The position numbers and the translations under genes are program-made. A stretch of 64,000 bases of DNA from the NCBI GenBank assembly GCA_043821365.1, contig JBDRCX010000006.1, forward strand, positions 96,001 through 160,000, written 5' to 3'. The DNA is from Candidatus Micrarchaeota archaeon (lineage in GTDB: Archaea; Micrarchaeota; Micrarchaeia; Anstonellales; Bilamarchaeaceae). The notes under the pieces were generated by a model that was not told the origin of the DNA, did not search any database, and saw nothing but the letters and a program-made list of their open reading frames with translations. The number at the start of each line of letters is the position of its first letter. Position 1 is the first letter of the stretch. Positions 14,739-16,284 of the stretch are shown one piece after another.

Positions 14739-15752
14739 ATGGTTCAGACAGTCAAATCCTTATATCAAGCAGTGAACGATAGACGTTCAGTACGAGTCTT
14801 TACAGATAAACAAATTGAACCAGAAAAATTACAAAGAATACTAGAAACAGCAAGAAATGCACCACAAATATCACCAGGCTCATATTCTATTACTGTAGTT
14901 CAAGACCCTAAACAAAAGGCAGATCTTCGAGCAGCATCATTACGTCAAAAATACGTAGAAACTGCACCAACAGATCTTGTTGTTTTAGTAAACAAATATG
15001 ATTTACCTAGTATTCAAGATGCAACAACTGCAACTGCCTATGCTGATCTTACAACTCATGTTTTAGGATTGGGAAGTGTTTGGATAGGTGCATTCCACCC
15101 AGATCAAGTAGGTCAGATTGTAGGTGCAAGACCAAGGCAGGTTCCTGTAGCCATTCTATGTTGCGGTGAACCTGAACCAAGAGAAAATGTTCATAGAACT
15201 CCAAGGAGACCATTAGATGATTTGATAACTGTTATCGGTCGTGACGGTCATTCGATTCCTTATCATGGGATTGGAAGCACAATGCTAGGGAGCAGACTAT
15301 TTTTTGATGTTATAGAACGTAGAATTTCAACAAGAAAGTTTACTGGGAAACCAATCGAAGAAGCCAAAATACACAGAATTATTGAATCTGCAAACAGAGC
15401 TCCGTCTGCAGGAAATCTACAAGCATATGATTTGATGCTGTTTACCGACCCAACTTTGATGAAGATATTTATGAGAACTGCGCTTGGCCAAAAAACAAAT
15501 GGAGAAGGAGCATTGCTGATAGTTATGGCAAATCAGCTTAGATCAAGTATAAAATACAGAGAAAGAGGAGCTGAACTTTATTGTTTACAAGATGCAACAA
15601 TTGCAGCAGCATATGCTGATTTGGCAGCACAAGATGTTGGACTTGGAACAAACATGATTACCAAATTTAATATCCCAAATGTAGCAGCTTTGATTGGAGC
15701 AAATAGATACCAGATACCAATTGCAGTTCTAGCAATTGGGAATATTGCATAA
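14739..15752 (+). CDS. Tandem nitroreductase-family protein
   Basis: Two units: RRSVRVF...APQ...LGLGSVWIGAF and RRISTRKF...APSAGNLQ...VGLGTNMI. Confidence 0.85.
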   Translation: MVQTVKSLYQAVNDRRSVRVFTDKQIEPEKLQRILETARNAPQISPGSYSITVVQDPKQKADLRAASLRQKYVETAPTDLVVLVNKYDLPSIQDATTATAYADLTTHVLGLGSVWIGAFHPDQVGQIVGARPRQVPVAILCCGEPEPRENVHRTPRRPLDDLITVIGRDGHSIPYHGIGSTMLGSRLFFDVIERRISTRKFTGKPIEEAKIHRIIESANRAPSAGNLQAYDLMLFTDPTLMKIFMRTALGQKTNGEGALLIVMANQLRSSIKYRERGAELYCLQDATIAAAYADLAAQDVGLGTNMITKFNIPNVAALIGANRYQIPIAVLAIGNIA

Positions 15753-15784
15753 ATTTTTATTAACAAATTAGCATAATATTGATT

Positions 15785-16171
15785 GGTGAGGGGTAAACTG
15801 GTACGTTTTTTGTTTGTTTGAGGGGGCACGCCCCCTCGTACCCCCGAAAGGAGGTGTGGAACCTTGGTTCCACAAACAAACTAAAATGAGGAAGTTCTGC
15901 CCTCTGCGAGGATAACAGGCTTTAAGGGCTTGAGAGTGCTACAGAAACGATACTTTTTTGTTTAAGGGCTGCCCATTGTACCCCGTTCGCGGGGTGCGGG
16001 GTGTCCCAGCAAACAATAAAAGATGCAACGCGTACTCTTTTATCCAATGACAGAGCAAGGCCTTTGGGCCGCTTTCTGAAATTCGCAAGAATTTTGGAAC
16101 CTTTTGATCTAGTAATAGATCAAATTGAAGTCAAATCCAGTAAATACAAAAGGCAGACTATTCCCCTCACC
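15785..16171 (+). ncRNA. rnpB: RNase P RNA (archaeal)
   Basis: P1: GGTGAGGGG (15785) / CCCCTCACC (16171). P2: ACTGG/CCAGT. CR-I: GAGGAAGTTCTGCC (15888). CR-II: ACAGAAAC. CR-III-like: GATGCAACG. CR-IV-like: AGTCAAAT. CR-V: TACAAAAGGCAGACTA, pairing as P4. Further helices CTCTG/CAGAG, GGATAA/TTATCC and AGAGTGC/GTACTCT. TATA-like TTTATTAA about 25 nt upstream. Confidence 0.92.
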
Positions 16172-16284
16172 TTCTACTTTTTAGGAAAAAGTGGAGTAAA
16201 AACTGATTATAAAAGAACCAAAAAATTCAATATTTAAATCTTCCACTACATTAAAGTTTCTAACACATTAAAGAGGATAGAAAT

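Follow-up and report, generated by a model that had tools for sequence, protein, structure and literature searches.

A type-M-like RNase P RNA from a Candidatus Micrarchaeota archaeon with a conserved but optional double hairpin at the bacterial P18 position

Archaeal RNase P RNAs are sorted into types A, M, and T only in reviews up to 2026, and the archaeal RNAs are described as having no P18 (PMC13462272, PMC4919922, PMC2615603), the absence of P13/14 being noted alongside it (PMC2615603, PMC4919922). Type M occurs in Methanococci and Archaeoglobi (PMC7191817, PMC4919922), with RNAs listed at 235–258 nt (PMC7191817). As in Methanocaldococcus jannaschii and Archaeoglobus, type M RNAs have no P8, carry a closed P15 without L15, P16, P17, or P6, and form an uninterrupted P10/11. 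The minimal type T RNA of Pyrobaculum is the product of a drastic, lineage-specific remodelling that let it escape standard models; it has lost most of the specificity domain and keeps P15–P17 and P6. For Micrarchaeota or DPANN, no description of RNase P RNA structure was found in a literature search with thin coverage of subscription journals.

Bacterial P18 is a single helix of about 10 bp, whose GNRA-capped loop L18 docks in P8. In type B bacterial RNAs, P15, P15.1, and P18 follow one another as serial hairpins. In type A bacterial RNAs, P18 lies between the 3′ strand of P15 and J18/2, which is CR-IV (element order: PMC2615603, PMC4919922). The helix is optional in some lineages, and the Aquificales are without P18 according to a title cited in PMC2615603.

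The RNA described here is encoded in the window, a 64,000-nt stretch of a Candidatus Micrarchaeota genome. A 530-nt gap between two plus-strand ORFs holds its gene (15785–16171, plus strand), which at 387 nt ranks near the top in length among 112 in the order. Within this gap, all Rfam families stay below their gathering scores. RF00373 (RNaseP_arch), which the first-pass annotation had proposed as a search model, scores 37.5 bits with permissive filters (E 5.6e-9 for a 1-kb search) against a cut-off of 84 bits, with an alignment that spans model positions 1–288 and runs from CR-I to CR-V in canonical order. The inserts of the RNA depress this score, and standard annotation therefore misses the gene. 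The 5′ end that Rfam assigns, 15852, is also wrong; P1 in fact consists of nine perfect pairs between GGTGAGGGG (15785–15793) and CCCCTCACC (16163–16171), and the ends of homologs carry the same GTGAGGGG/CCCCTCAC pair. A TATA-like A/T-rich box (15752–15765, plus strand) about 27 nt upstream of the 5′ end is a putative archaeal promoter, and comparable boxes occur upstream of homologs. A T5 run (16178–16182, plus strand), 7 nt past the 3′ end, is likely an archaeal terminator.

That the locus encodes RNase P RNA and that its J15/2 carries a conserved double hairpin is virtually certain. The locus is the sole RF00373 match in the 1.2-Mb, six-contig genome, its conserved regions are all in order, and congeners with the same core and fewer inserts score from 79 to 107 bits. 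The genome also encodes Pop5, Rpp21, Rpp29, and L7Ae, the protein set with which type M RNAs work. Folding of the full RNA compared with shuffles gives a z of −6.16. The first-pass annotation, which had called the gene an archaeal RNase P RNA from its letters, is thus borne out.

The core is a reduced type-M-like ribozyme made up of P1–P5, P7, P9, P10/11, P12, and a closed P15, with all elements on the plus strand. In P2, which is positioned as in homologs, ACTGG (15797–15801) pairs with CCAGT (16137–16141). P3 spans 15804–15888 in the MFE fold and contains a branched insert, about 70 nt in length, within a TTTGTTTG/CAAACAAA stem. In the Rfam alignment, CR-I and the 5′ strand of P4 follow at 15888–15904, and the long-range P4 pairing is present as TCTGCC (15896–15901) with GGCAGA (16152–16157). 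P5 is formed by CTCTG (15902–15906) and CAGAG (16051–16055). P7, which pairs GGATAA (15910–15915) with TTATCC (16040–16045), runs straight into the P9 hairpin (15916–15932), so that P8 is absent; in the RF00373 alignment, the columns for P8 are deletions. P10/11 is an uninterrupted 7-bp helix of AGAGTGC (15933–15939) and GTACTCT (16032–16038), and the alignment and fold place CR-II at 15941–15953, an extended P12 at 15953–16022, and CR-III at 16023–16030. J5/15 (GAGCAAG) and the closed P15 together span 16053–16070, with P15 itself reading GGCC-TTTG-GGCC (16059–16070); L15, P16, P17, and P6 are all absent. CR-IV (AGTCAAAT, 16129–16136) leads to the 3′ strand of P2, which ends at 16141, and CR-V with the 3′ strand of P4 (ACAAAAGGCAGACTAT) lies at 16146–16161 by sequence and Rfam alignment.

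Because P8 and L15/P16/P17/P6 are missing, the core is type-M-like by the definition of this type (PMC1874661, PMC4919922, PMC7191817). P10/P11, elongated and uninterrupted in type M, is uninterrupted here but only 7 bp long. Such a core without P8, L15, P16, or P17 had been proposed in the first-pass annotation; sequence, RF00373 alignment, and fold agree in confirming it, and P7, P9, P10/11, P15, CR-IV, and the two hairpins discussed below all lie where that annotation had placed them. The resemblance to type M is nevertheless incomplete. Type M is a feature of Methanococci and Archaeoglobi, whereas the window RNA comes from Micrarchaeota and has a branched P3, and relatives of the window RNA shrink to about 200 nt. 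In type M, P15 joins CR-IV/P2 directly, whereas two hairpins occupy this place in the window RNA (16074–16124). The type T RNA shares with the window RNA a drastic lineage-specific remodelling and its escape from standard models, but the losses are different, since the window RNA keeps the specificity domain with CR-II and CR-III and lacks P16/P17.

L9 and P3 carry further peculiarities. The L9 of archaeal RNase P RNA is described as a GAGA tetraloop (PMC2615603), as it is in type M, whereas the window RNA has the heptaloop UUUAAGG (15921–15927), which is kept in all homologs and reads YUUAAGG order-wide. This heptaloop may be a T-loop-like motif. The insert in P3 (15812–15880) consists of three hairpins in the MFE fold (15820–15837; 15840–15855, with a GAAA loop; and 15856–15873), while in L003, the nearest relative, P3 is a simple hairpin. 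The 3′ part of the insert recurs in the genome at G000:C6:400991–401030 (95% identity) and C3:124501–124533, and its 5′ part recurs weakly at two further loci.

The two hairpins in J15/2 are here called H1 and H2. H1 (16074–16099, plus strand) is the first half of the module, with 11 bp and a GCAA loop, and H2 (16103–16124, plus strand) is the second half, with 9 bp and a GUAA loop (GTAA in the DNA). The insert amounts to about 54 nt (16075–16128) placed precisely between the P15-GCUU linker and CR-IV (AGUCAAAU), its boundaries being exact in comparison with relatives that read GC-UU-AGUC. The window RNA shares with many relatives an insertion of about 52–58 nt whose ends abut GC(U) and AGUC exactly. 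Folded alone, H1 and H2 form exactly two hairpins (z −4.76). A BHB intron at this place was rejected on the sequence, as no helix joins the insert boundaries and each half is a self-contained hairpin.

Comparative data on the module have revealed extensive compensation. RNAalifold applied to a plain MAFFT alignment of 14 homologs predicted P15, H1, and H2, with 18 of 22 pairs compensated. A covariance model of the segment aligned there (R1) retrieved 29 distinct sequences, in which 96.8% of cells pair and 22 of 23 pairs have changed in both partners; slid partners pair in 36–58%, and none of 500 shuffles reaches the observed values. By helix, P15 is paired in 100% of cells, H1 in 97.9% with compensatory changes in all 11 pairs, and H2 in 94.2% with such changes in all nine. 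Since the R1 alignment of the 29 sequences was fitted to the model, each sequence was also folded singly, and two adjacent hairpins resulted in 29 of 29. GNRA loops cap H1 in 22 of 29 (mostly GCAA) and H2 in 22 of 29 (mostly GUAA), even where the stems are fully replaced, and the unpaired junction bases likewise stay conserved while the stems turn over. Between the window RNA and L003, H1 is nearly unchanged, and the stem of H2 has been largely swapped by compensating pairs around a retained GUAA. Compensatory changes over these 29 homologs, which come from two families, thus indicate that selection maintains the H1 and H2 helices. Two GNRA-capped helices at the bacterial P18 position had been claimed in the first-pass annotation along with a call for a covariation test in homologs, and both helices emerge from that test as conserved and, across the homologs, mostly GNRA-capped.

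BLAST homologs of the RNA were found in 23 of 24 sampled genomes of the window's genus, with Rfam scores of 32–107 bits and lengths of 201–418 nt. Order-wide, RF00373 has a match in 120 of 151 genomes, and only 56 of the 151 pass the cut-off. A majority of the order's RNase P RNA genes, that of the window included, score below the Rfam gathering cut-off and so go unannotated. Nearly all RNAs of the order read from the P15 hairpin through GC(UU) to AGUC, so an M-like catalytic domain is the rule in this group. About 100 relatives over 12 families have the bare P15-GCUU-AGUC arrangement, without H1/H2. Among about 130 RNase P RNAs in the order, 32 carry the module (by R1, a second model R2 described below, and an HMM core alignment): 17 in the 40 genomes of the window's genus (g1), ten in seven other genera of the same family (f1), and five in genus g13 of family f6. 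In g13 the stem sequences differ and H2 is usually without a GNRA cap, and the module may therefore have an independent origin there. In a phylum-wide draw, all R1 finds of the module were in family f1, and 100 genomes from other orders yielded none; since R1 is sequence-specific, unrelated inserts could escape it.

On a tree of 201 core RNA columns, which is poorly resolved and in which a few rows (e.g., L006) are mis-scored as lacking the insert, module presence needs about 20 changes, at least six of them forced by well-supported branches. In the strongly supported four-taxon clade of the window RNA, L004 (genome G024) cleanly lacks the module, while the window RNA, L003, and L006 carry it. 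The module is thus dispensable, as a member of the window's own clade does without it. The same G024 RNA has the P12 extension of the window RNA; G015 shares H1/H2 with the window RNA (88% identity), but its P12 is short and the P8 position holds additional hairpins. The RNase P RNAs of the order are mosaics of optional modules. Hairpins at the P8 position, between P7 and P9, also occur in L003 and L006; P12 is extended in 67 of 112 RNAs; and about 20 of the 112 have inserts at the bacterial P19 position, between the 3′ strand of P2 and CR-V (e.g., L214:316–390, L006, L014, L017).

Similarity to bacterial P18 is evident in the slot, in helices of about 10 bp, in the GNRA caps, and in the optional presence of the helix. 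However, bacterial P18 is one helix docking in P8, whereas the window RNA has two helices and no P8. Restriction of H1/H2 to one archaeal order, where the module is absent from about 100 of about 130 RNAs and thus from most members, indicates that it is almost certainly not homologous to bacterial P18. A conserved but optional hairpin pair sits in the P18 slot, where no described archaeon has a helix, and no account of such a pair was found in the literature. The suggestion of the first-pass annotation that this might be an undescribed architecture stands to the extent that no description was found. The data speak against a fixed architecture: the module is optional (32 of about 130), has seen many gains or losses, looks portable, and is set in an RNA with no P8.

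Portability is apparent from copies elsewhere. A covariance model of H1 and H2 alone (R2) leaves out the TTGAC-type L010, L013, and L023, so that it undercounts this variant; MAFFT on H1–H2 alone aligned the H2 of TTGAC-type RNAs with the H1 of the others. R2 scores 45–73 bits on J15/2 copies, 35–36 bits on hairpin pairs that follow CR-III (G017, G023), and 34–38 bits on intergenic copies (G003, G023). The window's own genome has a second H1/H2-like copy at G000:C6:327240–327294 on the minus strand (L274:1501–1555; R2 28.3 bits, E 8e-4), which adjoins a 136-nt tRNA match on the opposite strand, possibly an intron-containing tRNA gene. All R2-matched copies consist of an 11-bp hairpin followed by one of 6–9 bp, in the frame YCYURAA...UUYRGRG-(S)CUUUUG. 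Four congeners (L020:1600–1662, L021:1415–1479, L011, L012) have a similar GNRA-capped hairpin pair right after CR-III, which is the bacterial P13/P14 position, and L020 and L011 have this pair together with H1/H2.

Copy number is low. There are two R2 matches in the window's own genome and zero to one extra in 40 congeners (E ≤ 0.001), and by BLAST the TTGAC-type variant is single-copy in G002, G014, and G022, where it is found in the RNase P RNA gene only. A high-copy repeat family finds no support in the R2 searches of 40 genomes or the BLAST searches of three. Rickettsia palindromic elements and rRNA expansion segments share several traits with H1/H2, namely a discrete hairpin module, presence/absence polymorphism, a tolerant site in an essential gene, and similar copies elsewhere. 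Palindromic repeat elements, however, are dispersed in many copies, whereas H1/H2 has one or two per genome, helices and loops conserved over genera, and no obvious terminal repeats; neither these nor a target-site duplication are obvious at the boundaries GCUU/UCUG and UUGA/AGUC. H1/H2 is read as a portable, selectively kept yet dispensable peripheral element.

The genome that carries the window also encodes a full-length HARP, a protein-only RNase P, outside the window (G000:C6:602392–602934; L304:1501–2043), with 177.7 bits to PIN_5 and 179 bits to TIGR03875, whose cut-off is 95. A 2019 survey reported HARP as absent from DPANN and as never present without the RNP proteins (PMC6380272). In the order studied here, HARP occurs in family f1 (65 of 73 genomes) and in f9 (15 of 19), and the survey of the order found it in none of 42 genomes of f6 and in none of the remaining families. 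Redundancy with HARP may explain the lability of the RNA enzyme in family f1, although the link is one of context, since H1/H2 also occurs in f6, where HARP is absent. In genera g17 (G054, G067, G076, G130, G134, G142, G150), g18, g26, g29, and g9, the order survey found HARP with neither an RF00373 match nor Rpp29. Among the genomes listed for genus g36, all have HARP and none an RNA or Rpp29 match, and among those listed for g40, HARP is again present with no RNA or Rpp29 match. Pop5 was found in none of 15 genomes sampled from g17, g18, g26, g29, g9, and g36, and a relaxed RF00373 search of 14 genomes that had no RNase P RNA match (g17, g18, g23, g26, g29, g9) gave weak matches only, of which the three that were read look protein-coding. 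With completeness at 84–93%, genera g17, g18, g26, g29, g9, and g36 are candidates for archaea in which HARP has replaced the RNA enzyme. The coexistence of HARP with the RNA enzyme, together with genera in which the RNA, Pop5, and Rpp29 are undetectable, bears on the replacement of an RNA enzyme by a protein.

Several readings of H1/H2 can be set against these data. In the favored one, a portable double-hairpin unit would have been inserted or duplicated into J15/2 and, where retained, would probably be a peripheral element that braces the catalytic domain or gives it a docking platform; the GNRA loops, and the base of H2 with its conserved U-rich sequence, could touch another helix or a protein subunit. 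The module would then be an analog of bacterial P18 and P15.1 in function, with an independent evolutionary origin, and catalysis would not depend on it. This reading is preferred because helices and loops are under selection, because the slot is that of bacterial P18, and because a P18 graft activates an archaeal RNA: grafting E. coli P18 together with a change of J15/18 raised activity 49-fold (PMC2615603). A strict analogy to P18 fails, since P8, the receptor of bacterial L18, is absent and neither a tertiary contact nor a receptor or protein partner of H1/H2 came to light; the search for a GNRA-loop receptor found none, and these loops are too uniform to be tested for covariation. The roughly 20 presence changes on the RNA tree, and L004 without the module in the same clade, also speak against a brace. 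Moreover, covariation and stable GNRA caps are equally expected of an inert insert that is kept compactly folded inside an essential ribozyme. The probability of a brace or platform of insertional origin is put a little short of even. The inert insert itself, a mobile or selfish double-hairpin copy lodged in a tolerant junction with no role and covarying since an unfolded insert disturbs the ribozyme, is a serious possibility, though one held at well under even. Its patchy presence and clean, excision-like boundaries would suit such an element, as would module-like copies at a second site of RNase P RNA and at intergenic and tRNA-flanking loci, the P3 insert of the same RNA, which is built from sequence repeated in the genome, and the many other junctions of relatives' RNAs that hold inserts; the protein-only RNase P of the genome could in addition relax constraint on the RNA enzyme. 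The very low copy number, including the single-copy TTGAC-type variant in three genomes, argues the other way, as do the conservation of GNRA loops and junction bases despite stem turnover, the persistence of the module over several genera, and the want of obvious terminal repeats or target duplications.

A role for H1/H2 as a protein-binding platform that recruits or replaces a subunit of the catalytic domain, for example to compensate a reduced Rpp30, or that binds a lineage-specific protein, is improbable. J15/2 does lie in the catalytic domain, which is bound by Pop5–Rpp30 (PMC13462272), and Rpp30 was not found in the window's own assembly with Pfam or with a congener's protein as query; that assembly is, however, 87% complete. 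In 24 of 25 congeners an Rpp30-like ORF is present (e.g., L268:1312–1764), but it is short, at about 150 aa, and corresponds to the last third of the Pfam Rpp30 model, which is reminiscent of the shortened proteins of type T. As this short ORF is present with or without the module, there is no correlation between Rpp30 and H1/H2, and compensation for Rpp30 was rejected on this ground. H1/H2 also contains no K-turn or other known protein-binding motif. It is more improbable still, to the point of being very unlikely, that the hairpins descend from the P15–P16–P17 arm of type A by remodelling rather than by insertion. They do follow P15, and their roughly 55 nt compare with a 43-nt arm in the Rfam consensus, but they lie 3′ of a closed P15 and a conserved GC(UU) linker rather than within P15, and there is neither an L15 GGU loop nor a P6 pairing. 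The bare P15-GCUU-AGUC of about 100 relatives in 12 families, and the failure to detect the module in 100 genomes of the phylum's other orders, are also at odds with such a descent.

Types A, M, and T of archaea are all without P18; the present lineage contributes an M-like core from beyond the methanogens, with its P18 slot filled by helices. Its close relatives, some of which have the module and some not, and which combine inserts differently, constitute a natural deletion series for the trade-off between RNA peripheral elements and protein subunits in a ribozyme. A broader reading would hold that a Micrarchaeota core of about 200 nt has been colonized repeatedly by a portable, GNRA-capped double hairpin at the junctions of bacterial braces (P18 here; P13/14, P19, and P8 in relatives), as an ongoing re-invention of RNA–RNA bracing in a protein-rich archaeal enzyme, in a family that has HARP beside the RNA enzyme, the latter apparently replaced by HARP in some genera. 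Taken as a whole, this broader reading is more doubtful than likely.

On another contig, G015 has a further RNase P RNA fragment (G015:C66:1391–1619; L290), which contains an H1/H2 of its own (R2 41.3 bits) and is probably from a second organism, as the bin has 6% contamination. At the other extreme from the window RNA in length, the smallest RNAs of the order measure about 197–208 nt (L016, L008, L009, L227, L056, and others), which is shorter than the type M RNAs listed in PMC7191817. They consist only of P1–P5, P7, P9, P10/11, a short P12, and the P15 hairpin, with both domains and all five conserved regions kept.
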